IMG/VR virus record: IMGVR_UViG_3300042879_003909
Coordinates: 15,772-79,771 of that record
Direction: 5' to 3' (one strand)
DNA: 64,000 nt
From: a virus
Taxonomy: Duplodnaviria > Heunggongvirae > Uroviricota > Caudoviricetes
This document shows positions 1-56,100 of this stretch, piece after piece. Below the pieces are notes generated by a model, which saw only the letters and a program-made list of their open reading frames with translations, was not told the origin of the DNA and made no database searches. A program made the translations under genes and the position numbers. Position 1 is the first letter of the stretch. Each line of letters opens with the position of its first letter.

Positions 1-243
1 AATGGGGCGATTCCAAATACCTTCAAACGAAGGTGTCCTAATCTCCAAGCGTTCTGCAACAACGTAAGCATGAACATTCTTACGCTGATCTTTTAGGACA
101 CGTTTCCGGCCCTTCTGCGAGACCCTAAATTCTACGTTATAGGCGATTATATTTGTATGGTGGCCGACCACCTTGCCCCGGTGCTTAACAGAGTAGCAAT
201 CTCTATGCAAGTTCCAATAAACGTAATAGCGGGCTTTACTCAT
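1..243 (-). CDS. Conserved small phage protein, truncated by window edge (not in ORF track)
   Basis: Translated by hand from ATG at 243, open to base 1: MSKARYYVYWNLHRDCYSVKHRGKVVGH...GRKRVLKDQRKNVHAYV. Resembles a common phage hypothetical family (VYxNLH...GRxRV...KNVHA). Confidence 0.75.
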   Translation of the reverse strand, partial: MSKARYYVYWNLHRDCYSVKHRGKVVGHHTNIIAYNVEFRVSQKGRKRVLKDQRKNVHAYVVAERLEIRTPSFEGIWNRPI

Positions 244-248
244 GGCTT

Positions 249-443
249 TCACTTATAATAAACCAAATAAATCTCGTCTGCGTCCATTTTATACCCTGAC
301 TTATCGCCTGTCAAGAGGTCATTTACTGGAAAAAACTCATCGCCAAAAGAAAAGTTTTCGTCAGCCGCAAGAACTTCTACTTCTTGTCTTAGTTGCTCGG
401 GTGAAAGCCTCTTAAGCTTTTCTAATAATTCTTTATAGGTCAT
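249..443 (-). CDS. Hypothetical early protein
   Basis: ORF track 249..461. Start moved to the ATG at 443 (MTYKELL), which follows GGAG and abuts the upstream TGA. Confidence 0.7.
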   Translation of the reverse strand: MTYKELLEKLKRLSPEQLRQEVEVLAADENFSFGDEFFPVNDLLTGDKSGYKMDADEIYLVYYK

Positions 444-444
444 G

Positions 445-816
445 TCATTTCTTTTCTCCAATTAGATATACAACTTTACCATTCTCAGAATCATCAAGTT
501 CAACATTGAAGTGTAAACTGTATTCTTTTTCATACCTTGCTTTAAGTTTTTGAAGTGCCTCAATGGCTTCATCAATACTATTACACTCAAAAATATCCCA
601 AAGATCTATGTGTTTAATCAGCCTATCTTCCATTACTTTCTCCTTACGAGGCTTTCGCCCCGCTCCTTCGCGTTTTCCGCCGTGGGTCATGTACAATCTC
701 CGCCTTTCGTCTACTGAACGAGTTATCACCGCTATGATGCTGTTGCCCTCGCATGAGTCACAAATTGAAGTGTTGTGTGAATACAACAATGAACCGCATT
801 TCCTACAATTTTTCAT
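445..816 (-). CDS. Hypothetical early protein with N-terminal CxxC..CxxC and HGGKREGAGRKP motif
   Basis: ORF track 445..834. Start at 816 overlaps the stop of the upstream ORF (ATGA). Confidence 0.7.
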   Translation of the reverse strand: MKNCRKCGSLLYSHNTSICDSCEGNSIIAVITRSVDERRRLYMTHGGKREGAGRKPRKEKVMEDRLIKHIDLWDIFECNSIDEAIEALQKLKARYEKEYSLHFNVELDDSENGKVVYLIGEKK

Positions 817-971
817 ATTCGACACTCGCTGCATTCTCTTGGCTCTGATAATTCAACAATGTGCCACTCTGTATCGTCGTCCTCGCAATAAAGCAGGGCC
901 GAATCGTGGTCAATAAATGGGCCAACAAAACTTAATCCGTCTACAAAATTACCATAAACAATTACAAACAT
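813..971 (-). CDS. Hypothetical 52-aa protein (not in ORF track)
   Basis: Hand translation MFVIVYGNFVDGLSFVGPFIDHDSALLYCEDDDTEWHIVELSEPRECSECRI. Fills the gap in the operon and is coupled to both neighbours. Confidence 0.7.
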   Translation of the reverse strand: MFVIVYGNFVDGLSFVGPFIDHDSALLYCEDDDTEWHIVELSEPRECSECRI

Positions 972-972
972 A

Positions 973-1134
973 TTATTTTCCCTTTCTCAAAGCCCTTACA
1001 GTAAGTCTTAAACTAATCATTGCTAGCTCTGGACTTGGCCCTTGACCGTGACAATTAGCAAACTCGCCACCTAATAAAGTAGCAACATATAAACCGTTCC
1101 AGTGACTAAATTGAATGTGTGCCTTGATATCCAT
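973..1134 (-). CDS. 53-aa protein, HicB-antitoxin-like N-terminal motif (not in ORF track)
   Basis: MDIKAHIQFSHWNGLYVATLLGGEFANCHGQGPSPELAMISLRLTVRALRKGK. AAGGAG RBS; first gene after promoter 1154-1181. Confidence 0.65.
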   Translation of the reverse strand: MDIKAHIQFSHWNGLYVATLLGGEFANCHGQGPSPELAMISLRLTVRALRKGK

Positions 1135-1153
1135 TGCTTTCTCCTTTACGATG

Positions 1154-1181
1154 ATTATACACTATACATCGTCACTGTCAA
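1154..1181 (-). promoter_or_regulatory. sigma70-type promoter P1
   Basis: TTGACA-N16-TATAAT, TG at extended -10. Confidence 0.85.
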
Positions 1182-1216
1182 GGCCCGGAGTTTAATAAAA
1201 GATATATTTTTCTTTA

Positions 1217-1270
1217 CCCCCACAAAAGAGGGGGCCCGGCCGGCCCGGCGCCCCCCGTTAGAGGGGCTAC
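1217..1270. repeat. GC-rich multi-hairpin element E1
   Basis: ccccc-acaaaaga-ggggg / cccggccggcccggcg / cccccc-gtta-gagggg, just 3' of the stop at 1278. Confidence 0.85.
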
Positions 1271-1277
1271 CTTTTAG

Positions 1278-1484
1278 CTAGTTCTTGGCAACGATCTTTT
1301 TGAGGCTCAGCGTTCGATAGCCACCGTTTGCACAATCGACGGTGATATACTTGCCATTAGGGCCGATACCCCTCTTTTCAACTACTCCACTGATAGAACG
1401 CAAGATATTGCGATTACCATGCAAAGGATAAAAAACATCGACCACGCTACCAACTTTAGCACCGATAGCCTTAAAAGAAACCAT
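1278..1484 (-). CDS. Hypothetical early protein
   Basis: ORF track; AAGGA RBS; co-oriented with island. Confidence 0.7.
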   Translation of the reverse strand: MVSFKAIGAKVGSVVDVFYPLHGNRNILRSISGVVEKRGIGPNGKYITVDCANGGYRTLSLKKIVAKN

Positions 1485-1521
1485 ATAAAATCCTTAAAAA
1501 TAATAAATTTTAAACAAAGGA

Positions 1522-1551
1522 TGCGACAGCTACATCTCTGCAACTGTCGCA
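1522..1551 (-). terminator. 13-bp stem with GAGA tetraloop (terminator or processing hairpin)
   Basis: Minus strand TGCGACAGTTGCA-GAGA-TGTAGCTGTCGCA. G.U pairs form only on the minus-strand RNA; followed by a T-rich tract. Confidence 0.55.
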
Positions 1552-1569
1552 CCCCCACACAAAGAAAAA

Positions 1570-1782
1570 CTACGCTTCTTTAGTCGCAAACTTTTCAGCC
1601 TGATCTTTTCGGTAACGCTCTTGACGCTCAACAAGGGCTTTAATTAGAGAGTCTAGGCCAGACGCTCCAACCTTAACGGAAACCTCGTTATTCTCGCTGT
1701 CACGAAATTCGATTGAATCGTAATTCCAACCAATATAGGTCGTAGAAGCATCAAACGAAACCGACTGTTTAACCTTGAGCAT
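1570..1782 (-). CDS. Hypothetical early protein
   Basis: ORF track; AGGAG RBS; downstream of P2. Confidence 0.75.
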   Translation of the reverse strand: MLKVKQSVSFDASTTYIGWNYDSIEFRDSENNEVSVKVGASGLDSLIKALVERQERYRKDQAEKFATKEA

Positions 1783-1820
1783 TTTAGCTCTCCTAACAAA
1801 GAAATGAAACTTACACTCTA

Positions 1821-1848
1821 ATTATACCGGGCGATCAATGATTGTCAA
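1821..1848 (-). promoter_or_regulatory. sigma70-type promoter P2
   Basis: TTGACA-N16-TATAAT, overlaps end of ORF 1835..2104. Confidence 0.8.
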
Positions 1849-2104
1849 ATTTCAGACCGTTAATTTCAAAATACTTTTCGCAATCATTCTTGGAGTCAAT
1901 CAAGCTCTTTCCGGTGCGTTCCTTATAAAGTTTAACACACGCAAGCTTACCACGATGCTGACCCTCATACTGTTCTTCAACAGTCAAATAAATAGAATGA
2001 GCGGTCACTTCACAAAGCTTAATAATTAACTTTGCTACGTGAGAATCCAAGAAAGGGGCAGACTTTGCCGCATTCAATAAATGTCGGATGGCTTCAGTAT
2101 TCAT
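1835..2104 (-). CDS. Small protein with C-terminal ribosomal L7/L12-CTD-like motif
   Basis: KLACVKLYKERTGKSLIDSKNDCE resembles KIxxIKxxRexTGxsLxEAKxxvE; AAGGAG RBS. Confidence 0.55.
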   Translation of the reverse strand: MNTEAIRHLLNAAKSAPFLDSHVAKLIIKLCEVTAHSIYLTVEEQYEGQHRGKLACVKLYKERTGKSLIDSKNDCEKYFEINGLKFDNH

Positions 2105-2123
2105 TCGTTTTCTCCTTTTCCTT

Positions 2124-2151
2124 ATTATACATTATCGACAGAGGTTGTCAA
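2124..2151 (-). promoter_or_regulatory. sigma70-type promoter P3
   Basis: TTGACA-N16 (acctctgtCGATAatg)-TATAAT. Confidence 0.85.
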
Positions 2152-2214
2152 GTTCTTTAGTAAAAATCTTACAAGTTCTTTCGGCCCGGCTTGCCCTAAT
2201 TAATAGGGGGAAAA

Positions 2215-2421
2215 CTAATCTTTTCCAAAATAATCTATGCTATCGTTATTGTGCGTTAACCCCTGCTTGGTCAATTCTCCAACAACATCGATAATCCCTT
2301 GATCTCGGTAAAGTCTTACCAAATAATCCATACAAAATTGCTTCCATTCGTCAACACTTATTTCCCCGGATAGAAACAATCTTCGAACGTCGTCATAACT
2401 TGACCTATCATTCCATTTCAT
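2215..2421 (-). CDS. Hypothetical early protein
   Basis: ORF track; CACAAAGGGG leader. Confidence 0.7.
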   Translation of the reverse strand: MKWNDRSSYDDVRRLFLSGEISVDEWKQFCMDYLVRLYRDQGIIDVVGELTKQGLTHNNDSIDYFGKD

Positions 2422-2438
2422 TTCAATTCCCCTTTGTG

Positions 2439-2627
2439 CTAATAATCGTACTGACCGTGATCCCAGTCATCGCCGCCCATGTAATCCTGCCATTCCGTAT
2501 ATTCGTCCGGCTGGCCGTCGTCGTAGTTCTCGTTGGCTTCCTCGTCGCCCCAAAACTGGGCCATTTCCTCGGCGGTCAACTCTGGGCCATTGAATTCATC
2601 GCACTGAGACTTTTCAAAACTAGACAT
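2439..2627 (-). CDS. Highly acidic 62-aa protein (FExxQCDE family)
   Basis: 20 D/E versus 1 K in 62 aa; ACACAAAGGGG leader. Confidence 0.75.
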   Translation of the reverse strand: MSSFEKSQCDEFNGPELTAEEMAQFWGDEEANENYDDGQPDEYTEWQDYMGGDDWDHGQYDY

Positions 2628-2673
2628 TTTAATTCCCCTTTGTGTCTTTTCTATTAATCCTGCTGACTGTTTT

Positions 2674-2701
2674 ATTATACAATATATATCGTCCTTGTCA
2701 A
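2674..2701 (-). promoter_or_regulatory. sigma70-type promoter P4
   Basis: TTGACA-N16 (aggaCGATAtatattg)-TATAAT. Confidence 0.85.
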
Positions 2702-2736
2702 GTGCCCGGCTGAAATAAAAAAAAGAATATTTCTTT

Positions 2737-2810
2737 TACCCCACCAAAAGAAGACCCCCCATTAGAGGGGGCCCGGCCGGCCCGGCGCCCCCCGTTAGAG
2801 GGGACTTACC
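2737..2810. repeat. GC-rich multi-hairpin element E2
   Basis: Shares gagggggcccggccggcccggcgccccccgttagagggg with E1; 3' of stop at 2820. Confidence 0.85.
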
Positions 2811-2819
2811 CGACACCAC

Positions 2820-3581
2820 CTATCTGGAGTAGCTATGTTTGACCCCCTCCTTTTTGAGTACCTTGAGGGCCTCGGATGCTTCTGAACCCTTTGGCTGTAC
2901 CCCATGAATGAGGAGCCCGAAACTGGTGTACCTCGTTTGGGGGTTGGCTGCGTGTTCATCGGTATGATCGATTTCCAAGCCTAGTTCAGTGGCTTGTTGT
3001 ACACTGAACACAACTTTAGCATATCTTAGTTTATACTGTTCGATCAAGTAGTCCTCTCGACCCCCCTCGCTGGCGGTAAGCACTAGATTCTCTGGAATGT
3101 CATACAATCGGTTAACCCAGTATCGTACACTCTTGGTGTAAGCGTAGAATAAGCGGCCCGGGTTGTTTCGAGCAACTTCAATCCAAGCGTCAAAATAATC
3201 TTGGTTGAAAAAATCACCGGCAACATGAATCCGGCATACCCCTAAATCGTGGGGCATGCTAGACTGAATCGATTCGATCATCTCGGCTTTAGTTAATGGC
3301 CGTAAAGCGTCGAAATTGTGCTTGCGTGAATTGTAAACGTTAGTGTATACTACTTCCTGCGAAGCGGAAAAGCAGCGGAGTTGAGTAGCCGGGCCATCTT
3401 TGATAGAACGTTTACCGTCTTTTAAAACGGCTTTAGATAGGCAATCCTTAGCGAATGGGCAAGAGTAGCCCGAAAGCAGGTCTAATGAATAAACCTTTCG
3501 GCCATCTTCCAAGTAAACAGCGATAGATTCTACTTCGGCAAGTGCTTCGATCTTTGCATTAGCTGGGCTGAATTTTAGCAT
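2820..3581 (-). CDS. Gene product 88 (GP88)-like phage protein
   Basis: SCPFAKDC...C, RIHVAGDF..QDYFDAW..VA...P..LFYAYTKS pattern characteristic of the GP88 family. Confidence 0.7.
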   Translation of the reverse strand: MLKFSPANAKIEALAEVESIAVYLEDGRKVYSLDLLSGYSCPFAKDCLSKAVLKDGKRSIKDGPATQLRCFSASQEVVYTNVYNSRKHNFDALRPLTKAEMIESIQSSMPHDLGVCRIHVAGDFFNQDYFDAWIEVARNNPGRLFYAYTKSVRYWVNRLYDIPENLVLTASEGGREDYLIEQYKLRYAKVVFSVQQATELGLEIDHTDEHAANPQTRYTSFGLLIHGVQPKGSEASEALKVLKKEGVKHSYSR

Positions 3582-3618
3582 TTCTTTGTTCCTTTGTGTT
3601 ATTGCCTTTGACTCTCTT

Positions 3619-3646
3619 ATTATACAATATCGGCAACCGTTGTCAA
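3619..3646 (-). promoter_or_regulatory. sigma70-type promoter P5
   Basis: TTGACA-N16 (acggttgcCGATAttg)-TATAAT. Confidence 0.85.
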
Positions 3647-3731
3647 GTACTTAAATTTATTTTTTATAAAATCCTGCTGACCCTACTAATGGGGGATACG
3701 CTAGAAAAAAACTTTTTTGATTTTATTTTAT

Positions 3732-3850
3732 ACCCCCCGAAAGAGTGTACCCAGATAGACACCCCCCAAAAGAGGGGGCCCGGCCGGCCCGGCTCCCCCC
3801 TTCGGAGGGGTATCCCACCACAAGATACTACCCCCGAGAGAGGAGCCCAC
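3732..3850. repeat. GC-rich multi-hairpin element E3
   Basis: cccccc-aaaa-gaggggg, cccggccggcccggct, cccccc-ttcg-gagggg; 3' of stop at 3855. Confidence 0.85.
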
Positions 3851-3854
3851 GCTA

Positions 3855-4016
3855 CTATACCGCTAAATCGCTGACCCCCATATCGGATTCGAACTGGTGG
3901 AAAAATGCTTCGTTGTAAATCGCCGTCGATTCGATGAAGGCTTCCAGCTCCAAGAGGTCTTCTTGGGTTGGCATGTAAACTTCGTCGCACTGCTGAGTTT
4001 CAAAAACGTTTTCCAT
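3855..4016 (-). CDS. Acidic 53-aa protein (FExxQCDE family)
   Basis: Internal ATG of track ORF 3855..4157, lies after P6 and the ACACAAAGG leader; 13 D/E, no K/R. Confidence 0.75.
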   Translation of the reverse strand: MENVFETQQCDEVYMPTQEDLLELEAFIESTAIYNEAFFHQFESDMGVSDLAV

Positions 4017-4059
4017 TTTCCTAATCCTTTGTGTGATAGAACGTCTTTCGTATGTCTCT

Positions 4060-4087
4060 ATTATACAGTATCGGCCCGGTTTGTCAA
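4060..4087 (-). promoter_or_regulatory. sigma70-type promoter P6
   Basis: TTGACA-N16 (aaccgggcCGATActg)-TATAAT. Confidence 0.85.
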
Positions 4088-4092
4088 GAACT

Positions 4093-4287
4093 TTATTGAA
4101 AAATCTTAGTTGGAGTCCAGAATTTTGGACGGGCTCGGAACGGCCCTTCTTCGTCACAGAACATCATTCCATCGGGGGTACAATAATTCCATTCGCTGAA
4201 AATTTCATACCACTTTACCCAACCTTCATCGGTTAGAATTGGCGACCCGTCTTTTGGGGCGGTTTCAATTGGTTGAATATCAATCAT
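4093..4287 (-). CDS. Small phage protein with PIETAPKDG motif (DUF551-like)
   Basis: MIDIQPIETAPKDGSPIL...PKFWTP; AAAGGA RBS. Confidence 0.7.
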   Translation of the reverse strand: MIDIQPIETAPKDGSPILTDEGWVKWYEIFSEWNYCTPDGMMFCDEEGPFRARPKFWTPTKIFQ

Positions 4288-4318
4288 TTTCCAGTCCTTT
4301 TTCTGATTAGCTGATTAT

Positions 4319-4346
4319 ATTATATCTTATTTATCGGCCTTGTCAA
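4319..4346 (-). promoter_or_regulatory. sigma70-type promoter P7
   Basis: TTGACA-N16 (aggcCGATAaataaga)-TATAAT. Confidence 0.85.
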
Positions 4347-4398
4347 GACTAAAATTTAGCTGAATGCCAAAATCTCAGTGACTATTACCTATCCCAGC

Positions 4399-4500
4399 CG
4401 CCCCTATTTATAGGGGTGTTACACACCACAAAATTCTGCTGACCCGGAAATCCTACTGACCATTCACCCAAAAACACGCCCCTATTTATAGGGGCGCTAC
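4399..4500. repeat. Two copies of palindrome CGCCCCTATTTATAGGGG, 78 bp apart
   Basis: 4399-4416 and 4477-4494, each followed by YGYTACAC. Confidence 0.85.
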
Positions 4501-4570
4501 ACCCGCCCGCCCGAGGCCCCCCGCTAGGGGGGTCAGGCCACCCAGTCGGGGGGGATAGCCCCCCTTTCGA
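4498..4570. repeat. GC-rich hairpin element E4 (divergent)
   Basis: cccccc-gcta-gggggg and gggggggatagcccccc; 3' of stop at 4576. Confidence 0.7.
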
Positions 4571-4575
4571 GCGTA

Positions 4576-4911
4576 CTACTCAAAGTCATCGGCGTCGATT
4601 ATACCTGCACGGATGGCCACCGTAACGAACGCGATTTCCTTTCGGTATACCATATCCTCATCGATATTGTATTGGATATCGCCTTCTGGATTCGCTTCAA
4701 GCTGGGCCCGGTAATTTGCTACCCGAGCAGCTTTTTCGTTTTTGTGTTGCCTATGCTTGGAAGTCTTTTTTGTGGCGATACCTACCGCCTTTGCGAGAAC
4801 ACGTAGCGAACGAATACTACCGCCTTTCGAACGGTATTCAGCTTTCAAGTGCTTGTTGGCAAGGCCGAAAGCGTTTTCAATCGCAATGTCTAGTTCTGTG
4901 AAATCGTACAT
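4576..4911 (-). CDS. Hypothetical 111-aa early protein
   Basis: Start moved to MYDFTELD (4911), directly after the ACACAAAGG leader; the longer track ORF runs into regulatory DNA. Confidence 0.75.
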   Translation of the reverse strand: MYDFTELDIAIENAFGLANKHLKAEYRSKGGSIRSLRVLAKAVGIATKKTSKHRQHKNEKAARVANYRAQLEANPEGDIQYNIDEDMVYRKEIAFVTVAIRAGIIDADDFE

Positions 4912-4949
4912 TCTTTTTTTCCTTTGTGTGAGATAAACTTGCCTTACAC

Positions 4950-5150
4950 TACTATAACCGCACAAACTAAACAAGATTAACAGGTCCGATTTATATTTTG
5001 TGATAAAAAGATTTTTTGATTGTCGTAAGTTGTTATATCGCATAGACTTGTAGCACGAAATTATTTTACAACTTTTTTTTGGCACGATATTTGCAATAGA
5101 TATAGTATAAAAGGGGGGGGAATATAGAAAAAACTTTTGTGATTTTATTA
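4950..5150. repeat. Duplicated regulatory block, copy 1
   Basis: Aligns with 6402-6600 (actataaccgca; agattaacaggtc.gatttatattttg; aaaaagatttttt; gtcgtaagt; cgaaattatttt; ttttggcacgatatttgca; aaaagggggg; gaaaaaactttt.tgattttat). Confidence 0.9.
5079..5095 (+). promoter_or_regulatory. sigma54 (RpoN) -24/-12 promoter consensus
   Basis: TTGGCACG-ATAT-TTGCA, exact match to YTGGCACG-N4-TTGCW. Confidence 0.7.
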
Positions 5151-5151
5151 C

Positions 5152-5362
5152 ACACCCCCCTAACGGGTGGTCTCACATATACACCCCCCAAAAGGGGGGC
5201 CGGGAGCCCCCGGTCCCCCCGTTAGAGGGGGTATCCCCCCTTCTGGGCTACCACCCCCCCCGTTCAGGTGGTTTTCAAAAAAATAAGAAAAGTTTTTTTC
5301 TGGAGCATCCCCCGATAGAGGGACGCCCCAAAGAGTGGCTGGGTTGCCACCCCCCTTTCGGG
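5152..5362. repeat. GC-rich multi-hairpin element E5
   Basis: cccccc-aaaa-gggggg, cccccc-gtta-gaggggg and further C/G-run hairpins; abuts stop at 5363. Confidence 0.8.
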
Positions 5363-5575
5363 CTACATGGCTTGGATCTTTGCCAACCCCACTTCTAGGT
5401 TAGTTCGCAAGAGGCGGTAATCGTCTTGGCTTAAATAAACCTGTTCGCCTACTTTGTTGAAAACGTCGTGAGTTTCGTAGCTTCGTTCTTCCTCATGTTC
5501 TAAGGTAGATACCACGGTGAAACCGTTGGTTAGGTTGTACTTGATTGTTCGTTCATTTACTTTTTCTACTAGCAT
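5363..5575 (-). CDS. Hypothetical early protein
   Basis: ORF track; ACACAAAGG leader; after P8. Confidence 0.75.
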   Translation of the reverse strand: MLVEKVNERTIKYNLTNGFTVVSTLEHEEERSYETHDVFNKVGEQVYLSQDDYRLLRTNLEVGLAKIQAM

Positions 5576-5612
5576 CTTTTTTTCCTTTGTGTTAGTTGCT
5601 TTCTACTCTTCT

Positions 5613-5640
5613 ATTATACCTTATCGGCCCGGCTTGTCAA
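5613..5640 (-). promoter_or_regulatory. sigma70-type promoter P8
   Basis: TTGACA-N16 (agccgggcCGATAagg)-TATAAT. Confidence 0.85.
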
Positions 5641-5646
5641 GAGACT

Positions 5647-5784
5647 TTAAAGATATTTTAAAGCTTTTTCTGCTTGGGCCTTTAATCCCTCAAAAAGCTT
5701 GCGGGTTTCTTCGCTAATTCCTTCTTGCGATAGAAGGTCTTCGATGGCTTCGATTGCTTGTTTGATGTTTTTGTAGTAGTTCAT
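5647..5784 (-). CDS. Hypothetical 45-aa helical protein (not in ORF track)
   Basis: MNYYKNIKQAIEAIEDLLSQEGISEETRKLFEGLKAQAEKALKYL; ACACAAAAGG leader. Confidence 0.65.
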   Translation of the reverse strand: MNYYKNIKQAIEAIEDLLSQEGISEETRKLFEGLKAQAEKALKYL

Positions 5785-5899
5785 TTTCTTTTTTCCTTTT
5801 GTGTTTTGTTTTGTTTTGTTTCGATCAAGCCACGTTAGGTTTGTTATCGGCTTTCGCCTTCCGTTTTAGTCAAGCAACTTTTTGTTTTTCCTTTTCTTT

Positions 5900-5927
5900 A
5901 TTATACCTTATCGGCCGGGCTTGTCAA
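5900..5927 (-). promoter_or_regulatory. sigma70-type promoter P9
   Basis: TTGACA-N16 (agcccggcCGATAagg)-TATAAT. Confidence 0.85.
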
Positions 5928-5944
5928 GTCTCTTGAGTCATTTT

Positions 5945-6097
5945 TTAGAAGAAATTTAAAATTTCTTCCAAGGCAGCTTCTAGTTCTTCCGACATCCCCG
6001 ATTCAGGGGATTCTTCGTTCACTTCTTCAATCCAGATCAATTCGATTTCGACCGATTCTAGTACTTCATCCGATTGTAGATTCTCAAAAACGTTCAT
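5945..6097 (-). CDS. Highly acidic 50-aa protein (FExxQSDE family; not in ORF track)
   Basis: MNVFENLQSDEVLESVEIELIWIEEVNEESPESGMSEELEAALEEILNFF; 16 D/E, no K/R; ACACAAAGG leader. Confidence 0.7.
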   Translation of the reverse strand: MNVFENLQSDEVLESVEIELIWIEEVNEESPESGMSEELEAALEEILNFF

Positions 6098-6134
6098 TTC
6101 TTTTTTCCTTTGTGTTATTGTCTTCGTTTTCTCT

Positions 6135-6162
6135 ATTATACTCTATCGACCAACTTTGTCAA
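6135..6162 (-). promoter_or_regulatory. sigma70-type promoter P10
   Basis: TTGACA-N16 (aagttggtCGATAgag)-TATAAT. Confidence 0.85.
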
Positions 6163-6168
6163 GAGACT

Positions 6169-6363
6169 TTATTGAATTTCTTCAAATTTCTTTTCGAGAT
6201 ATTTTAAATCGTTTGAACGATTTCTGCAATTTCTTGGCGATCCCTCACCGTATGCAATCCAATACTTCTTTGACAATGCAAAATATTCTTTTTTACCATT
6301 GCCAGCTTCTACGATGCTAACCTTAACACCACTTTTTAAAACTTTGCTTTTTAGAATGTTCAT
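6169..6363 (-). CDS. Hypothetical basic 64-aa protein
   Basis: Start moved to MNILKSK (6363) after AAGGA; the track ORF extends into repeat DNA. Confidence 0.7.
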   Translation of the reverse strand: MNILKSKVLKSGVKVSIVEAGNGKKEYFALSKKYWIAYGEGSPRNCRNRSNDLKYLEKKFEEIQ

Positions 6364-6401
6364 TTCTTTTTTCCTTATTTTAAACTTTTGTTCTCTTCTA
6401 C

Positions 6402-6600
6402 CACTATAACCGCAGAAAACAAATAAGATTAACAGGTCTGATTTATATTTTGTTGCAAAAAGATTTTTTCGTCGTCGTAAGTCATTGGTAGATAACAACT
6501 TATGATTCGAAATTATTTTTAAAATATTTTTTGGCACGATATTTGCACTGCTTGTAGTACAAAAGGGGGGTATTGCAGAAAAAAACTTTTTTGATTTTAT
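6402..6600. repeat. Duplicated regulatory block, copy 2
   Basis: Aligns with 4950-5150. Confidence 0.9.
6531..6547 (+). promoter_or_regulatory. sigma54 (RpoN) -24/-12 promoter consensus
   Basis: TTGGCACG-ATAT-TTGCA, identical to 5079-5095. Confidence 0.7.
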
Positions 6601-6603
6601 TGT

Positions 6604-6790
6604 GACCCACCCAGAAGAGGGGGTATTTGAGAGATCCCCCAAAAGGGGGGTTCCGGGCCGGCCCGGCCCCCTCGTTCGGGGGGATATCCCCCCTTTCAGG
6701 CTACACCCCCCCATTCGGGTGGAGTTTAGAAAAAAACTTTTTTCTTTTTTTTCTCGTACCACCCAGAAGGGGGATCACCCCCCTTCCTAG
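6604..6790. repeat. GC-rich multi-hairpin element E6
   Basis: ccccc-aaaa-gggggg, ccgggccggcccgg core, ccccctcgttcggggggatatcccccc; 3' of stop at 6801. Confidence 0.8.
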
Positions 6791-6800
6791 CGTACCACCA

Positions 6801-7019
6801 CTATCCAGCAAGTTTTTCCAACATTTTTAACGTCCATGCGGGGCCACTAGGAAGCGGGTGCATTTCCCCGGCAGGATTGTAGAGGGTGCATTCTTCATAG
6901 TATCGGTCGTCGTCCCATTCTGTGGTTACGATAACATACCATCCGGTTTTAAAGGTAAACTTTGTGGCTCTGTTTGCGATGGTTTCGATGAGTTGGATAG
7001 AAGAAGTTTGTTCGTCCAT
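6801..7019 (-). CDS. Hypothetical early protein
   Basis: ORF track; ACACAAAGG leader; after P11. Confidence 0.75.
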   Translation of the reverse strand: MDEQTSSIQLIETIANRATKFTFKTGWYVIVTTEWDDDRYYEECTLYNPAGEMHPLPSGPAWTLKMLEKLAG

Positions 7020-7054
7020 TTTTTTTCCTTTGTGTTTGTGTCTCGTATGTTCTT

Positions 7055-7083
7055 ATTATACCTTATCGGCCCAACCCCGTCAA
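7055..7083 (-). promoter_or_regulatory. sigma70-type promoter P11
   Basis: TTGACG-N17 (gggttgggcCGATAagg)-TATAAT. Confidence 0.8.
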
Positions 7084-7112
7084 GAGTTGAGCCGAATTTT
7101 TTTTTATTTTTT

Positions 7113-7310
7113 TTATCTTACAATGGCCAACTTTGGAACTAGGCTTTTAGGCCCTTGTCGAATGTCAATTGCGGTTCCGTCCTTGCAAACTAGCATGATA
7201 GGAATCATCCAGTAGTCCTCTCCATCATATTCAATCAAGAAAACATACTTGGTTCCGGCGTCAAGAGCAACTTCGTTGAGACCTACGGTGAACATGTTTA
7301 GCTTTTCCAT
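7113..7310 (-). CDS. Hypothetical early protein
   Basis: ORF track; ACACAAAGG leader; after P12. Confidence 0.75.
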   Translation of the reverse strand: MEKLNMFTVGLNEVALDAGTKYVFLIEYDGEDYWMIPIMLVCKDGTAIDIRQGPKSLVPKLAIVR

Positions 7311-7351
7311 TTTTTCTTTCCTTTGTGTGAAACTGTCTTTCGTATGTTTGT

Positions 7352-7380
7352 ATTATACAATATCGACTCAACCCCGTCAA
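7352..7380 (-). promoter_or_regulatory. sigma70-type promoter P12
   Basis: TTGACG-N17 (gggttgagtCGATAttg)-TATAAT. Confidence 0.8.
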
Positions 7381-7408
7381 GAGTTGAGCCGAATTTTTTT
7401 TATTTTTT

Positions 7409-7585
7409 TTATTGGAACATATCCATTGCGATTGCGTGAAGTTCACAAGAATAGTTGTTCGTCAAGTAATCGCATTCCGCATCCGTCAATGGGCGATTTT
7501 CGACGATATGCCAGCCACCCCGGCAGAACACGGTATCATCGGCAGGTTCTAGTTCTAGGTCGATAACTTGGTTGATTGTAATCAT
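7409..7585 (-). CDS. Hypothetical 58-aa protein (not in ORF track)
   Basis: MITINQVIDLELEPADDTVFCRGGWHIVENRPLTDAECDYLTNNYSCELHAIAMDMFQ; ACACAAAGG leader. Confidence 0.7.
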   Translation of the reverse strand: MITINQVIDLELEPADDTVFCRGGWHIVENRPLTDAECDYLTNNYSCELHAIAMDMFQ

Positions 7586-7628
7586 TTTTTCTTTCCTTTG
7601 TGTTTGAAACTGTCTTTCGTATGTTCTT

Positions 7629-7657
7629 ATTATACCTTATCGACCAATCTTGGTCAA
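7629..7657 (-). promoter_or_regulatory. sigma70-type promoter P13
   Basis: TTGACC-N17 (aagattggtCGATAagg)-TATAAT. Confidence 0.8.
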
Positions 7658-7662
7658 GAGCT

Positions 7663-7824
7663 TTAACCTAAAATTCCGTTTTTATTTTTAACCACTTCAA
7701 CTAAGTAGCTATAGCTCTTGCTGGTATGAACCGTACCATCCGCACAGCGAGCAATAAAATATTGCTGCTTTGTTCCGCGCAATCGGCACTCGATTTTCCA
7801 AACTAGTTTTTCTGTACTAAACAT
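7663..7824 (-). CDS. Hypothetical 53-aa protein (not in ORF track)
   Basis: MFSTEKLVWKIECRLRGTKQQYFIARCADGTVHTSKSYSYLVEVVKNKNGILG; CACAAGG leader. Confidence 0.7.
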   Translation of the reverse strand: MFSTEKLVWKIECRLRGTKQQYFIARCADGTVHTSKSYSYLVEVVKNKNGILG

Positions 7825-7862
7825 TTTTTTTCCTTGTGTGAAACTGTCTTTCGTATGCTCTT

Positions 7863-7890
7863 ATTATACTCTAATTATCGCCATTGTCAA
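7863..7890 (-). promoter_or_regulatory. sigma70-type promoter P14 (first of the island)
   Basis: TTGACA-N16 (atggCGATAattagag)-TATAAT. Confidence 0.85.
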
Positions 7891-8000
7891 TAGGAAACTT
7901 TATTTTTTATTTTTTTATTTTTCTAGTATACGGCCATATACTGTAAAAATGTATATCGTATTCTATTGTAAAGTATATTTCAGTATACCTATAAACCGCT

Positions 8001-8134: not shown

Positions 8135-9079
8135 TTATATAGATAAAAAACCACCCTTAGCAACACAATGATCCTTATAGTATCTAAAAACAGCAGTATG
8201 GCCAACAATTGCTATATGGTCGGCTATTTCTCTAAAAGTTTTTCCTTCTTCCACCATTGATATAATTAGGTCTTTATATGGTTCCAGATTAGATTTTGCT
8301 TTTTTATATTTGTTTATAGCATTGTGCTTTGATGTAGAAGACTCTAAATGCTCTGGATTGCAGCATTTTCTATTATGGCATTTGTGATGAACTAAATATG
8401 GATAATCATTATAATGATAAGCATATGAAACCCTATGACATAAATATTGTTTTTTATCATAGATAAAATAACCATAACCCTCTTTTGTCGCTTTTTGCCA
8501 CTCCCAGCATCCATTATCAACCTTGATTAGATTTTTATCTACTTTATTTAAATATAGCTCTTTTAATGGAAAATCTGAATCTTGTTTATTTTTATTGTAA
8601 ATAACGTCTTCGTGCAAAGAGATTATAATTTCATGCTCTTTTTTTAGCAGCTTTTCCGGTGAACATTCTTCTATTATATAAAATAAAAAATCACTACCTA
8701 TATTAAAATCTGTTTGCAAGCCTTTATTATAATGATTATTTTTATTTAATTCTTTAAAATGTAGTTTTAATCTTTGTATTACATCTTCTGATGAGCCTAT
8801 ATACGCCTTATATAAATCATTTCTACAAATAACATAAAGCCCACAGATAACTCTTGTTTCGTCTAAAGATATTTTATGCTTTAATAATTTAGATATATTT
8901 TTGTTTTTTACTTTATAATCTAGCCTGATTGATCTTAGTTGACTTTTTGATATTTGATATTTTTCGCATATCTCTTTATTTGATAGCCTGCCATAGTTCT
9001 CTACAATTTCTTGGGCTTTATCGTGTTTTAAAGTATTTCTTTTTTTATATAAGGATTTTTTGCCTTTTGGTCTAGCCAT
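8135..9079 (-). CDS. Free-standing endonuclease, HTH + GIY-YIG + HNH + HTH
   Basis: GLY...YIGSS...R..H (GIY-YIG) and CWEW...GYG...CHRVSY...VHHKCHNRKCCNPEHL (HNH). Start at MARPKG (9079) after AGGAG. Confidence 0.8.
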   Translation of the reverse strand: MARPKGKKSLYKKRNTLKHDKAQEIVENYGRLSNKEICEKYQISKSQLRSIRLDYKVKNKNISKLLKHKISLDETRVICGLYVICRNDLYKAYIGSSEDVIQRLKLHFKELNKNNHYNKGLQTDFNIGSDFLFYIIEECSPEKLLKKEHEIIISLHEDVIYNKNKQDSDFPLKELYLNKVDKNLIKVDNGCWEWQKATKEGYGYFIYDKKQYLCHRVSYAYHYNDYPYLVHHKCHNRKCCNPEHLESSTSKHNAINKYKKAKSNLEPYKDLIISMVEEGKTFREIADHIAIVGHTAVFRYYKDHCVAKGGFLSI

Positions 9080-9113
9080 ATAATATCTCCTGTAAAAAAG
9101 GGGGTCTGCATAT

Positions 9114-9127
9114 AGATACACAAAAAA
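9114..9127 (-). promoter_or_regulatory. Putative late promoter motif (T-rich GTGTA)
   Basis: Minus strand TTTTTTGTGTATCT, about 35 bp upstream of the ATG at 9079. Confidence 0.45.
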
Positions 9128-9214: not shown

Positions 9215-9649
9215 CTAACTGTGACCCGGCTCTGTAGGCTTCCTTAAAAGCGGCATCATTGCTTCTTCTGGGGTACGATTACCCTTCTTAAAGTTGCAAT
9301 CTCTGCATGCACACACCAGATTTTCCCAAGTGTTTCTACCGTTTCTACTTTGAGGCAAAACGTGATCTAGAGTTAAGTGTTCAGGCTTTTCACAGCCACA
9401 GTACTGACACGTATAATTGTCTCTTAAAAATACGTTACGTTTATTAGGAACGAACCTCTTATTTCTTTTAACGTACTTCTTGACCATAACTATCTTAGGA
9501 ACTTGATAGTAGTCACCCCCGGCACTTAAAATAGGGTTTGGCCAAAATTCAATAGCTTGAACTACGCCTTTTAATAAAAGGACCATTCCTTTCTGCCAGC
9601 TACTAATAGTGATGACAGAATAATCCAAATTAAGTATAGTTGTTCTCAT
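9215..9649 (-). CDS. McrA-like HNH endonuclease
   Basis: RDNYTCQYCG...LTLDHVLPQSRNG..TWENLVCACRDCNFKKG. Confidence 0.9.
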   Translation of the reverse strand: MRTTILNLDYSVITISSWQKGMVLLLKGVVQAIEFWPNPILSAGGDYYQVPKIVMVKKYVKRNKRFVPNKRNVFLRDNYTCQYCGCEKPEHLTLDHVLPQSRNGRNTWENLVCACRDCNFKKGNRTPEEAMMPLLRKPTEPGHS

Positions 9650-9713: not shown

Positions 9714-9923
9714 ATGCATAATATAATACCGCCCGGCGAATATGTTGTCAAGGGCACTGAAGAATTAAATAAACAAGTGGCCCGGGAATTAGATATTCCT
9801 GACGAACCAAAACACACCACCGCACAGCTTTTCGAAGAAGGAGAGGAAATTGGAAGTAGACGACGAAACCCTACAGAAGATAATAAAGATAGCGAAGGCA
9901 CTAGCTCCAAAGTACACATTTGA
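9714..9923 (+). CDS. Hypothetical protein
   Basis: Strong AAGGAG RBS; overlaps the next ORF by 74 nt. Confidence 0.55.
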   Translation: MHNIIPPGEYVVKGTEELNKQVARELDIPDEPKHTTAQLFEEGEEIGSRRRNPTEDNKDSEGTSSKVHI

Positions 9924-10335
9924 TTGTCATAGTAAAGAAGATATCGAACAAGAAGCAATCATGATGGGCATCGAGGCATTGCCCCGGTACGATTCGGCTC
10001 GGCCCCTTGAAAACTTTCTTTACACCCATATTAGCAACCGGCTAAAAAATTTCAAGAGGGATAATTATTTTCGGCCAAATTCTGAGGGCGAACCCGAAAA
10101 GGTTCAGCAAAGTAAGAAGAATATTCTAGATGCCGGGTCCCTAAACGAGGGGGCTATCTACTTTGAGCCCGACTTGGATGACTATCTAGACAGCCGAGAA
10201 GCTGTAGAAAAAGTCCGGGCAGCCCTGCCAGCTTCTTATCGTAAAGACTATCTGAAGCTATGTGCCGGGGTAAGAGTGTCGGCCCATAGAAAGCAGGAGA
10301 TTTATTCTTTAATTAAGGAAATTTTAGATGGCTAG
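9850..10335 (+). CDS. Phage sigma-factor-like protein (sigma70 region 2-like)
   Basis: EDIEQEAIMMGIEALPRYDSARPLENFLYTHISNRLKNFKR resembles region 2 (DLxQE..LGL.EA..RYD...F..YA...I.N.L.N..R); TTG start after GGAG. Confidence 0.6.
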   Translation: MEVDDETLQKIIKIAKALAPKYTFDCHSKEDIEQEAIMMGIEALPRYDSARPLENFLYTHISNRLKNFKRDNYFRPNSEGEPEKVQQSKKNILDAGSLNEGAIYFEPDLDDYLDSREAVEKVRAALPASYRKDYLKLCAGVRVSAHRKQEIYSLIKEILDG

Positions 10336-11124: not shown

Positions 11125-11373
11125 ATGACACCAGAAAATTTTATATATTGGATACAGGGATTTTTTGAAATACAAGACCCAAAAAATATTACTGAACAAC
11201 AGGTCCAGATTATTAAAGACCATATAGCACTAGTGCTAAAAAAAGATACGCCGCAATATACGCTAAATTTTATTAAGAGCGATTCATCAGAAATATATTG
11301 CTTAAATCAGAAGCCTCCTCTACCAACAAATCCAGTAAATAACATTGTATTACCATTCGGAGGATCTTGTTAA
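11125..11373 (+). CDS. Conserved phage hypothetical protein
   Basis: MTPENFIYWIQGFFEI...QVQIIKDHIALV pattern seen in phage hypotheticals. Confidence 0.7.
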   Translation: MTPENFIYWIQGFFEIQDPKNITEQQVQIIKDHIALVLKKDTPQYTLNFIKSDSSEIYCLNQKPPLPTNPVNNIVLPFGGSC

Positions 11374-12449
11374 TGAAAACAGCCATAATATACGGCGTCA
11401 CCGGGCAGGACGGGTTTTATTTAACCCAAGAATTACTAAGGCACAATTATCAAGTAGTTGGTGTTACGCGAAGATCAAGCACTAATAATACCACTAGATT
11501 GACCCCTTTTCTTACCAACAAAAATTTAACGCTTATAGAGGGCGATGTAACCGACTGTTTTTCTATAGCGAATTTAATAAACAAATATAGGCCCGACGAA
11601 ATTTATAATCTTGCTGCACAGTCCCATGTGGCAACCTCGTTTGTCCAGCCTTCTTTGACTTGGGATATTACGGCCGGGGGATGTTTAAATATACTTGAGG
11701 CGATACGAAATGTTAGCCCGGGTATTAAGTTTTATCAGGCTTCTTCAAGCGAAATGTTTGGTAAAAATTATACGACCGCAGCCGATGGTAAAAAGTATCA
11801 AAATGAGGACACTCCGATGATGCCACAGTCGCCATATGCTATTGCCAAATTGGCGGCACATCACTTGGTAAGAAACTACCGGGACTCCTATGGCACCTTT
11901 GCATGCTCTGGTATTCTCTTTAATCATGAGAGCGCTCATAGGGGTGAGAATTTTGTTACCAGAAAGATTACCAAGTGGATAGGGGGATTGTGTGCCCTAT
12001 CAAGAGAAAATAACGATATAGTATTTTATGATGATTATATATTGTGCGGCAATACTAAATATCCAAAGCTAAGACTAGGCAACCTAGAGGCTAAAAGAGA
12101 CTGGGGACATGCAAAAGATTACTGCCGGGCCATGTATTTAATGCTACAACAAGATACCCCGGACGATTATGTTGTTTCTACCCAAGAAACCCACAGTGTT
12201 AAAGAGTTTTTAGATACGGCCTTTAAGGTGGCTCATTTGGGCGATTATAATAATTATATTGTTATAGATCCCGCTTTTTATAGACCAGCCGAGGTTGATT
12301 ACTTATTGGGAGATTCTACTAAAGCTAGAACAGTTTTAAAGTGGACCCCTGAATATGATTTTGCTTCTTTAGTAGAAGAAATGGTGGAGCACGATATACA
12401 TGAGGCAGAGAAGACAAGATTCGGAATTGCGCAAGTCAGTTCTCGTTAG
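11373..12449 (+). CDS. gmd: GDP-mannose 4,6-dehydratase
   Basis: GVTGQDG, PDEIYNLAAQSHV, FYQASSSEMFG, PQSPYAIAK, GILFNHES, FVTRKIT, LGNLEAKRDWGHAKDY, RPAEVDYLLGD. Confidence 0.95.
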   Translation: MKTAIIYGVTGQDGFYLTQELLRHNYQVVGVTRRSSTNNTTRLTPFLTNKNLTLIEGDVTDCFSIANLINKYRPDEIYNLAAQSHVATSFVQPSLTWDITAGGCLNILEAIRNVSPGIKFYQASSSEMFGKNYTTAADGKKYQNEDTPMMPQSPYAIAKLAAHHLVRNYRDSYGTFACSGILFNHESAHRGENFVTRKITKWIGGLCALSRENNDIVFYDDYILCGNTKYPKLRLGNLEAKRDWGHAKDYCRAMYLMLQQDTPDDYVVSTQETHSVKEFLDTAFKVAHLGDYNNYIVIDPAFYRPAEVDYLLGDSTKARTVLKWTPEYDFASLVEEMVEHDIHEAEKTRFGIAQVSSR

Positions 12450-19186: not shown

Positions 19187-19214
19187 TTATAAAATATAAA
19201 TAGGAGAATATAAC

Positions 19215-53119: not shown

Positions 53120-56100
53120 ATGACTAATACAAAAGAATCATTAGGACTGCACACGATATCAGACGGGCCCGTTGGAGGAATATATTCTAGGACGGGCCAA
53201 TCAAACCTCGTTCTTCAGGCTTCTTCGGTTGGAACGCCTCATTTTACCAACTGGGATGCTGGGCTAACCTCGTTAGAAAATACCACTAAAGAACGATTTG
53301 AAGCTAGAACAGCCACTCGGTTTTTGGACGATTATTTGTCCGAAAAAGGCAATTATAAAATAAGATTTGGGGCAAAAGATATTAAGATTGCAGACAATCT
53401 GGCGGCTGTATCTTATCCAGAGTACACCGATATTAACAAGTCGATTGTCAAAATATTTGATACTAATCTTTTAACATATCACACTGGAATTAAAGTAAAC
53501 TCATACGATTACACATGTATTGATTGGTCTTTAGTTTATAATGATAGCGTATTAATGCCCCAAATTAATTTGGATACTTTGCTTAATCCATATGCCGGGT
53601 TTCCTAGTAGCACAAATAATCGCTTTGATGCCGACCTAGATGGCCTATATATTATTATAGAATATACTGGCTATTATACCCTAGCAGACGCCGACCCATG
53701 TGTTTTAGCGGCCCCTTATTATAATTCTGTTTTAGATGGCAAAAGACAAATACTAAAATATAATTCGAATGAAAACTCTTTGCTCGCTGGGGAATATACT
53801 ATTGTAGACTTTAGTGCAGGTAGCCCAACTTCTAAAAAGATGGTATTGGCTAGGATTGGTCACACATTAGATATTGGCCCAACAGAATTCTTTTCTGCAA
53901 ATCTAGCAACTTTGGATGTCGGCGGATTTGGATTTATTGGATGTAATATTTATTTACTTCGTTATAAACCCGTTATAGAATGTGGAAAAGTAGATCTTTA
54001 TACTAAAAAAAGAGGACAGATCACTTCTTATGATTCTAATGGGAAGTTGGTTTGTCTAAAGCACAATTTACAAAATGGCGATATCATAAAAATATCTGGG
54101 GCAAAAAATTCTAAAATTAATGGAATAAGATATGTTCAGGTTGTTAATGATTCGACATTTATTATTTATTCTACTGCGGACCTAACTGTAAGAGTTGATT
54201 CTTATTACGAAGGACTACCGGAATGGACTGCGTGTGGCAATATTTATGATTCAGAATCTCAGGCTTGGGACTATTTAGGCACATTAACATCCCCAGATGG
54301 TAGGAATGGATATTGTTTTGAGCATCAAGAATCAATATCAAATGTTGGTTTTCATAGTTTTTATAAAACAAATACGCTGGGCGATAATTTTAATAATGTT
54401 TCTACTTTGGACCAATTACTAGAATTAGATTTTAGTATGACTAGCGGCATACTTACTAACTTTTACAATTTTCCTATTTTTTCATATGGTTCGCCAACAC
54501 GGGCACCGTCTGTAGACGCTTTCTTAAATTCTATAAATTTTGATCAGGGATTATTAAAAAGTACGAATGTAGCTAATGAATATGCTCCATCTCCGCTAGA
54601 TAGCGTTTGGGCCGGGCCATATAATTACCTTAATTCTTTTAAATTTGGTCACTCTATAGACTTAGTTAAATATCAAAATAAATATGTATTAGCCGTAGGA
54701 GAAAGGGGCTTATCTTCTATACCAAATCTAAACTTTTCTTTTCAGCTTCCGGTAAGCCCTATATATGGTAAAGTATTTTTATTTAATATTTATATGGATT
54801 CTAATGGACAGATAGAAAATTTGTCTTATCCAGATAGACCTGTAGAATTTGACTCTAAGTATTATGCTTATACTAATGATTCTAGTATTGCCAAGCCGCC
54901 ATATTTAACGCCCGGTAATAATGTTTCTGGATTCTATAGGTCTCTTTCTCACTTTACACCAATAGATTTTGCCGATAAACAATATAATTATTACTACGGA
55001 ACACTGACGCACACAAATGGCTCTGTTACAGGGGCCACTGACTCAGAATACTTCTTTGATTATTGTAATGATGAAATGCTTGGGGATTCTAATCTTTATA
55101 GAAGAATAGAATATCTGAATGGTATGGACTACTGGTATGGCTCTATGGTTTATTCTTTATTAGATTTAGATAAAAATGGAGCACTGCCAGAAGACCCAGT
55201 TGGGCTAGACTATAATGCTGGCGGCTGTAGGGATGCATATTTTACCAATATTAGCATACCAAAATTTTTATCAAATACTAGTTTTGTTTACAGTAATCCC
55301 CCTATATATCACCGGGGAGGATTTAACGTTTATCCATACGTAGATAACTTTGGCAAGGCGGTTGCATTAGATGTATCAGGCAATGATATTTATCTTTTAT
55401 CTTCTTCTAAAACTAAACCAATTGTAGAAAGACCAAATTATAGCGATGGTCTACCATCAGAAATAGAAATAGGCGATGGCCCCGGCTCTTGCTCTAATGA
55501 TAATTTAAATAAAACTCATTGTGGATATATTCACGTTTTTAAGAACGGAATAAAGATTCAAAAAATATATGAAACAGAAGCCTATACTTTACCTAGCGGC
55601 AGACACTATGGATTCTATTACAAGGCTGATAAATTTGCTTCATCTATGTATGCTAAAGGCGGCGAGCTTGTTTTTGGCCAAACAAAACCTATTGATTATC
55701 ATGATTCCGCATCTAATCAGCTAGAAACATCTAAAATTTTTATATACAAAAGAAGTGGCGATCTTTATTATAAAATAAATACTATACAAAACTCTAAAAA
55801 TAATAACTTTTCTTTTATTAATGATTTTTCTTTTCCGGATCAGAAAGAATTCTTTTTAAGAGACGGAAACGAGTTTATGGTATTTAGCGGTGGCATATTA
55901 TCAGGCACAGATATTAGCGGCTTATATTATTATCCGCCGGATAGATTTGGTAATTATTTTAAATACAACGGAAACATTTTAGTTGCTAACGCTTTCGATA
56001 TTTATAATGAGGACGGGGAGTATCATGCTTCTAATAATGACATTTTCACCGGAAGATCTAATGAGTTTAATCGACCAATAGATTATTTACATGTATACGA

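Follow-up and report, generated by a model that had tools for sequence, protein, structure and literature searches.

Duplicated control blocks with a conserved sigma-54-type box antisense to early genes in an uncultured T4-like lake phage

Why would a large phage keep, twice in its early region, a perfect sigma-54 promoter box that faces away from the gene behind it? The question is raised by an uncultured, T4-like lake phage represented by the 158,520-bp IMG/VR record IMGVR_UViG_3300042879_003909, which assembles as a circle with an end repeat of 122 bp and encodes a T4-type terminase, major head protein and gp55-like sigma factor. The window analysed here is the 64,000-nucleotide stretch formed by bases 15,772-79,771 of this record, and all positions given below are those of the window. 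It holds two copies of a control block, copy A (4906-5126, repeat families D7 and D12) ahead of the leftward gene 4576-4911 and copy B (6358-6578) ahead of the leftward gene 6169-6363. The two align gaplessly (84% identity, offset 1452 bp). Two diverged copies of about 200 bp had been noticed in a preliminary description; the duplication stands, and its limits are revised from 4950-5150 and 6402-6600 to those given here. The AAAAAACTTTTTTGATTTTATT at the right edge was assigned to the adjoining hairpin element and not to the block because it also heads a block-less element at 3706.

A selected -24/-12-type element

Each block carries on the plus strand the box TTGGCACGATATTTGCA, at 5079-5095 in copy A (GG at 5081-5082, GC at 5093-5094, predicted transcript start ~5106) and at 6531-6547 in copy B (predicted start ~6558). 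Both match YTGGCACG-N4-TTGCW perfectly, with GG at -24, GC at -12 and the exact spacing, so the exact RpoN consensus first described in both copies is indeed there. They are the only two perfect matches to the strict pattern TGGCACG-N4-TTGCW in the window and in the whole genome; 0.46 matches would be expected in the window with one mismatch allowed. The only further near-match in the window, TGGCAAGGCGGTTGCA at 55351-55366, has one mismatch, lies inside a gene for 1800 aa (53120-58522) and is probably due to chance. The run of 20 identical nucleotides shared by the two copies is not significant alone, because the duplicate is 84% identical throughout; the weight comes from other genomes.

Among viral contigs, 37 have the exact 17-mer, and by tblastn at least 12 of these are relatives that share the module adjoining the early region. 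For a survey of relatives, 80 loci amounting to 1.18 Mb were fetched around the shared GDP-mannose dehydratase gene (11367-12449). The relaxed pattern TGG[CT]A[CT][GA]-N4-TTGC[ATC] was found 88 times in these loci, nearly always in the early region, versus four times for a reversed-pattern control, an enrichment of about 20-fold. The relative L274 has two blocks homologous to those of the window phage, with two and three boxes, all five antisense to the early genes, and these blocks also occupy that contig's only cassette heads without a TTGACA promoter. When blocks A and B were aligned with the two L274 blocks, GCAAAT and GTGCCAAAAA proved invariant and the spacer varied (ATATCG, ATACTG, ATGTCG); invariant GG and GC parts around a variable spacer are, as read from this alignment, the conservation pattern of a -24/-12 element. 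Loss of the GG/GC spacing in homologues, which had been put forward as a result that would speak against sigma-54, was looked for and not seen, as the five L274 boxes all keep it.

The same picture comes from strain variants on contigs from other lake samples: the adjacent gene has 11 substitutions over 255 nt, block A a single one over 208 nt, and both boxes are unchanged. Box B is free of variant letters, and the nearby positions 6551, 6554, 6575 and 6576 vary. One strain variant swaps out most of block A yet retains 22 nt around box A (5073-5094). Judged by comparative sequence data, the box acts like a sigma-54 element and is under selection across the phage family. The sigma-54 promoter as first claimed is upheld to this extent, by the conservation in L274, the ~20-fold enrichment and the strain variants; that the promoter fires is an inference. 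In the family as a whole, 81 boxes are antisense and 47 sense, and in the sub-lineage formed by this phage and L274 all seven are antisense, a bias that argues for a directional function. The position of the box just past a terminator element is constant, yet across the family it takes either orientation. Close DNA relatives were not found by megablast against phage records, and a search of viral contigs with the left-end motif gave no match.

Host sigma-54 and a proposed antisense promoter

A sigma-54 promoter needs an AAA+ enhancer-binding activator with sites near the promoter, and its transcript starts 11-13 nt past the GC. As candidate host order we propose Pirellulales, partly from the palindrome TGCCA-N3-TGGCA, which is common to phage relatives and Pirellulales chaperone promoters. 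A host without rpoN would have spoken against the sigma-54 idea from the outset; rpoN is present in four of four Pirellulales genomes, which hold 27 strict sigma-54 boxes versus 7 for the control. At least five Pirellulales sigma-54 promoters, ahead of groEL and hsp20, are preceded at 88-123 bp by the palindrome, to which a heat-shock activator probably binds. These promoters with strict boxes agree with an in silico study in which predicted sigma-54 promoters of GroEL, IbpA, GroES, GrpE and DnaJK were enriched in Planctomycetota and Bacteroidota (PMC12316311). Four relatives of the phage have this palindrome as well, in pairs with a distance of 29 bp next to the boxes (50 occurrences versus 2 for the control). 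The boxes thus travel with parts of host sigma-54 chaperone promoters, an association that would be difficult to account for if sigma-54 did not read them. Several contigs of the phage family with the same promoter grammar, boxes and dyads (L141, L144/L199, L157, L161 and L177) have been binned into bacterial metagenome-assembled genomes (MAGs) labelled Gammaproteobacteria, Enterobacterales, Micavibrio, Rhodobacteraceae and Planctomycetaceae; because contigs of one phage family carry such diverse labels, the bin labels are unreliable as host evidence.

We infer that the boxes are probably a genuine docking site for the host sigma-54 holoenzyme. More tentatively, we favour an activator-dependent promoter that fires, its short transcript running rightward into the hairpin element and so opposing read-through. 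The block would then be a portable upstream control cassette of ~220 bp that replaces the strong sigma-70 promoter at two leftward early genes. At its far end, host sigma-54 polymerase would dock facing away from the gene and toward the terminator of the preceding cassette, and a host enhancer-binding ATPase would switch the promoter on. In the proposed planctomycete hosts sigma-54 would run the chaperone (heat-shock) genes, and the region would be tied to the stress state of the host. The product would be a non-coding rightward transcript of ~170 nt ending in the hairpin element, and counter-transcription from the leftward stop point would shield the weak, -35-less leftward promoter against read-through from strong early promoters upstream.

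The genome has 24 TTGACA-N16/17-TATAAT promoters, all leftward and clustered in the early region, which includes window positions 1-7900; the cassettes there run from a GC-rich hairpin element through a promoter and a conserved leader to a small gene. Outside the window, the second arm of this leftward early region has 19 of the 22 phage tRNA genes clustered at genome positions 151,970-156,223, all on the minus strand. Within 1-7900 every remaining leftward cassette head has TTGAC(A/G/C)-N16/17-TATAAT, and the genes starting at 4911 and 6363 are, as had been reported, the only heads without a TTGACA promoter. They have on the minus strand the -10-like TGCGGTTATAGT described before (4951-4962, copy B 6403-6414), 40 nt ahead of the ATG and at the position of the -10 in normal cassettes, with TGCGGTTA(T/A)AGT kept in all four block copies. 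Neither inspection nor a consensus scan revealed TTGACA or another -35 consensus at the leftward promoter of either block. A -10-like element without a -35 suggests that the genes of blocks A and B are served by a weak or factor-dependent leftward promoter. About 18 nt 5' of the -10-like hexamer lies the conserved minus-strand GACCTGTTAATCTT (4973-4986, copy B 6425-6438), of which GACCTGTTAATC is invariant in the four copies. A T4-type middle promoter in the blocks was rejected, as MotA and AsiA were looked for and are absent from the phage.

On the other side, box A points into the GC-rich multi-hairpin element E5 (5127-5360), and the corresponding element E6 (6579-6800) lies downstream of box B. 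The repeat families of E5 (D3, D4 and D8) are common to hairpin elements without an adjacent box, and E5 is the terminator region of the preceding leftward cassette. Directly after the boxes stands GTA(T/C)AAAAGGGGGG (5104-5120 and 6556-6570), which reads CCCCCC-TTTT on the minus strand and is the tail of the leftward terminator-like hairpin that ends the preceding cassette, the hairpin being convincing by folding in copy A only. The TA(T/C)AAAAGGGGGG at the predicted starts had been taken for a conserved start site; the sequence is there in both copies, but it is a terminator tail and is not kept in L274. The predicted sigma-54 start would therefore coincide with the expected stop of leftward transcripts. 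The suggestion that a structured RNA or a replication primer starts here is weakened accordingly, and an R-loop or replication primer made from the G-run was rejected, as the G-run is not kept after the L274 boxes.

Upstream of each box lies the imperfect dyad noticed from the start, at 5024-5052 in a degenerate form (CGTAAGT-N15-ACTTGTA, its centre ~67 bp 5' of the predicted start) and at 6476-6504 (CGTAAGT-N15-ACTTATG); the arm includes AACTTACGACGACG. The AT-rich spacer CGAAATTATTTT with a T-run connects dyad and box (5056-5078, copy B 6508-6530), and on the minus strand AAAAATAATTT(C/T)G is kept in all four block copies. These two dyads are the only ones of the CGTAAGT type in the genome, which has one unrelated GTAAAT-type match far outside the blocks. 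As both box and dyad are unique to the two blocks, they form one unit. Across the family the element is CGTAAGT-N15-ACTTACG with a fixed gap of 15 nt, found in 44 distinct copies and often as two subtypes 53 bp apart. A dyad lies within 150 bp of 36 of 194 boxes, versus 4.3 at random, and counted from the predicted start its preferred positions are about -70, +10 and +50. One arm alone, GTAAGTT (AACTTAC on the minus, gene-bearing strand), stays unchanged through all four block copies; the dyad of the window blocks may have decayed from the family element or may serve as a protein site. Other relatives have two conserved hairpin-like dyads after the box, with a T-run on the box strand in 7 of 18 cases; this layout resembles a small RNA gene and, like the orientation bias, argues for firing. 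The hairpin CGTAAGTnnTT-N7-AAnnACTTACG also recurs in many bacterial genomes, among them those of Planctomycetota, Treponema and Fibrobacter. When 185,579 bacterial genomes were scanned, at least 120 dyad matches came up, many of them in Planctomycetota and spirochaetes, and 85 were examined; they have neither a neighbouring gene nor a flanking protein family in common, no Rfam family was found around them, and 11 of the 85 stand where a terminator hairpin would, 2-22 nt (in one case 101 nt) downstream of a tRNA or tmRNA gene's 3' end.

Several observations weigh against a firing promoter. The phage has no PF00158 protein, the ATPase of sigma-54 activators, and no Sigma54_DBD, hence no sigma-54 of its own. 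The TGCCA-N3-TGGCA palindrome is absent from blocks A and B, where a host activator may act without a site of its own, and the assignment of the phage to Pirellulales is tentative. In the relatives that have the palindromes, 5-10 bp separate these from the downstream edge of the box, whereas a classical enhancer would lie on the other side, and many boxes form face-to-face pairs, often 2-3 bp apart; together these arrangements suit non-productive binding. No credible plus-strand open reading frame (ORF) follows either box, as had been stated in the preliminary description, no RNA run was found among the sequencing runs that contain the region, no Rfam family was found in the window, and folding energies downstream of the box do not separate the plus from the minus strand. 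The dyad was rejected as a host enhancer site, since only 5 of the 85 examined bacterial copies lie near a box and these include the phage-like contigs L141 and L177 binned into MAGs. It was also rejected as an RNA hairpin: covariation was no better than in shuffles, RNAalifold gave ~-0.9 kcal/mol, and the excess of plus-strand G-T wobbles (139 versus 61) is not independent evidence because it comes mainly from one conserved subtype.

Alternative functions of the box

Because the phage has no activator gene and the box no downstream gene, a parked polymerase is a serious rival, which we consider unlikely yet the strongest of the alternatives. The box would bind sigma-54 holoenzyme without firing, and the stable closed complex would titrate sigma-54, together with the heat-shock activator in those relatives whose boxes adjoin activator sites; alternatively, the complex would occupy the DNA just past the terminator and influence the neighbouring promoter. 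The wrong-side palindromes and the face-to-face boxes 2-3 bp apart cannot support normal initiation, and the position after the terminator is kept across the family with the orientation going either way. In E. coli the majority of sigma-54 sites are bound yet transcriptionally silent (Bonocora et al. 2015, PMC4591121), which also counts against firing here. The same study weakens a role as a pure roadblock, since bound sigma-54 polymerase had no such effect in a direct test in E. coli. A pure decoy would need neither the orientation bias nor the strict antisense placement in the sub-lineage, and a sink of two sites per genome would be weak as long as the genome is not highly replicated. A related and more doubtful idea is that parts of a host sigma-54 heat-shock promoter are inverted to act as traps, the box being joined in relatives by the wrong-side activator palindrome. 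If true, sigma-54 polymerase and the activator of the chaperone genes would be held on replicating phage DNA, the host stress response would be retuned and the phage cassettes insulated; the host factors would be captured by DNA and not by a phage protein.

It is about equally improbable that a phage DNA-binding protein reads the bipartite T(G/T)GCA-N6-TTGCA, the likeness to -24/-12 being coincidental and the block being the operator of a regulated leftward promoter. The box does lie within a conserved region upstream of a weak -35-less promoter, and the other conserved sub-elements of the block are unique in the genome save for one distant AAAAAGATTTTTT and loose two-mismatch matches to short motifs. 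The face-to-face pairs of the relatives look like palindromic operators, and the early region is rich in small orphan proteins. One such protein is P0001, the 111-aa product of the minus-strand gene behind block A (4576-4911), for which no Pfam, PHROG or Atlas lead was obtained, peptide patterns gave no match in viral contigs and the AlphaFold model was unusable (predicted local distance difference test score, pLDDT, 50). It has only two homologues, and the sole diverged one, P0004 (67% identical), lies on L274 behind a homologous block. The minus-strand gene behind block B (6169-6363) encodes P0002 (64 aa, no family), and the block heads unrelated genes in the window phage and in L274. Against a phage protein as reader, the match covers all positions that define sigma-54 boxes with the exact spacing, and variation falls where sigma-54 promoters vary. 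Moreover, the boxes co-occur with the palindromes that flank host sigma-54 chaperone promoters, and the diverse contigs with the identical 17-mer yielded no candidate regulator common to them.

A plus-strand sigma-70 promoter overlapping the box, or a T4-type late promoter element, is very improbable: TTGGCA-N16-TATAGT scores 10/12 in copy A in the consensus scan, but copy B has TGTAGT, one strain variant has a spacer base deleted and relatives with the same box have no -10 at that distance; likewise the minus-strand TATAAAT is present in both blocks of a phage that has a gp55-like sigma and TATAAATA ahead of late genes, but it becomes TGTAAAT or TCTAAAT in the L274 blocks. Both were rejected on these comparative grounds. 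The gp55-like late sigma gene itself (9850-10335, 161 aa, with a match to Sigma-70 region 2) lies just right of the early region, and TATAAATA motifs stand directly 5' of late genes, for example at 19195 ahead of the head gene at 19215. Two minus-strand genes for HNH-type homing endonucleases (8135-9121 and 9215-9649) lie between this sigma gene and the early region.

Relation to known systems

Phage takeover of host transcription is known almost wholly through sigma-70, phage polymerases and phage sigma factors, and the preliminary remark that sigma-54 promoters are rarely described in lytic phages is a fair account of the literature. The single cultured published example of a sigma-54 route is Pseudomonas phage YuA, for which a sigma-54-type promoter is attributed to Ceyssens et al. 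2008 as cited in bioRxiv 10.1101/2023.10.13.562163; in the latter work the YuA start site P015 was mapped to a sigma-54-like promoter region. As far as these accounts go, YuA is likewise a virulent phage without sigma-54 or activator of its own that carries a host sigma-54-type promoter; its promoter differs in serving phage genes and in having promoter-trap and start-site support. Here, the box is known from sequence alone, faces a terminator away from the gene, sits in a duplicated portable cassette and belongs to a large family of uncultured T4-like phages. Consensus sigma-54 sites are maintained by selection across a whole family of large environmental phages with no activator gene. If the boxes fire or trap polymerase, early-gene control in these phages would be coupled to the host stress response. 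As the block is short and conserved, in vitro and reporter work is feasible without culturing the phage.

The promoter-early stem-loops (PeSLs) of T4-type phages (Arbiol et al. 2010, PMC2839356) resemble the arrangement found here, since small early genes are split by repeated cassettes of terminator stem-loop and promoter that recombine and shuffle the genes. The neighbouring cassettes fit the PeSL combination of a terminator stem-loop with a strong sigma-70 promoter; blocks A and B do not, having instead a 220-bp block with an antisense sigma-54 box. Recombination between copies is seen as well: on contigs of other lake samples 6631 is joined to 5181, and 5258 to 6566, and these junctions, as they read, are natural recombinants or deletions between block or hairpin copies that remove or swap the three intervening cassettes.

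With the sigma-54 chaperone promoters of Planctomycetota and Bacteroidota (PMC12316311) the phage boxes share the core, and some relatives share TGCCA-N3-TGGCA. In the host promoters the palindrome lies ~90-125 bp upstream and a chaperone gene follows, whereas in the phage relatives it abuts the downstream edge of the box; the window blocks have neither the palindrome nor a gene after the box. The E. coli sites that are intragenic or antisense (PMC4591121) are similar in being conserved and non-random in orientation, in having no gene that they evidently drive and in being for the most part bound but inactive; they differ in lying inside bacterial genes, whereas the phage boxes are intergenic and fixed beside terminators and promoters. 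What this case adds is the conserved antisense placement of the box in a duplicated, recombining cassette, the repetition of this layout in L274 and a palindrome of host chaperone promoters that is common to members of a phage family.

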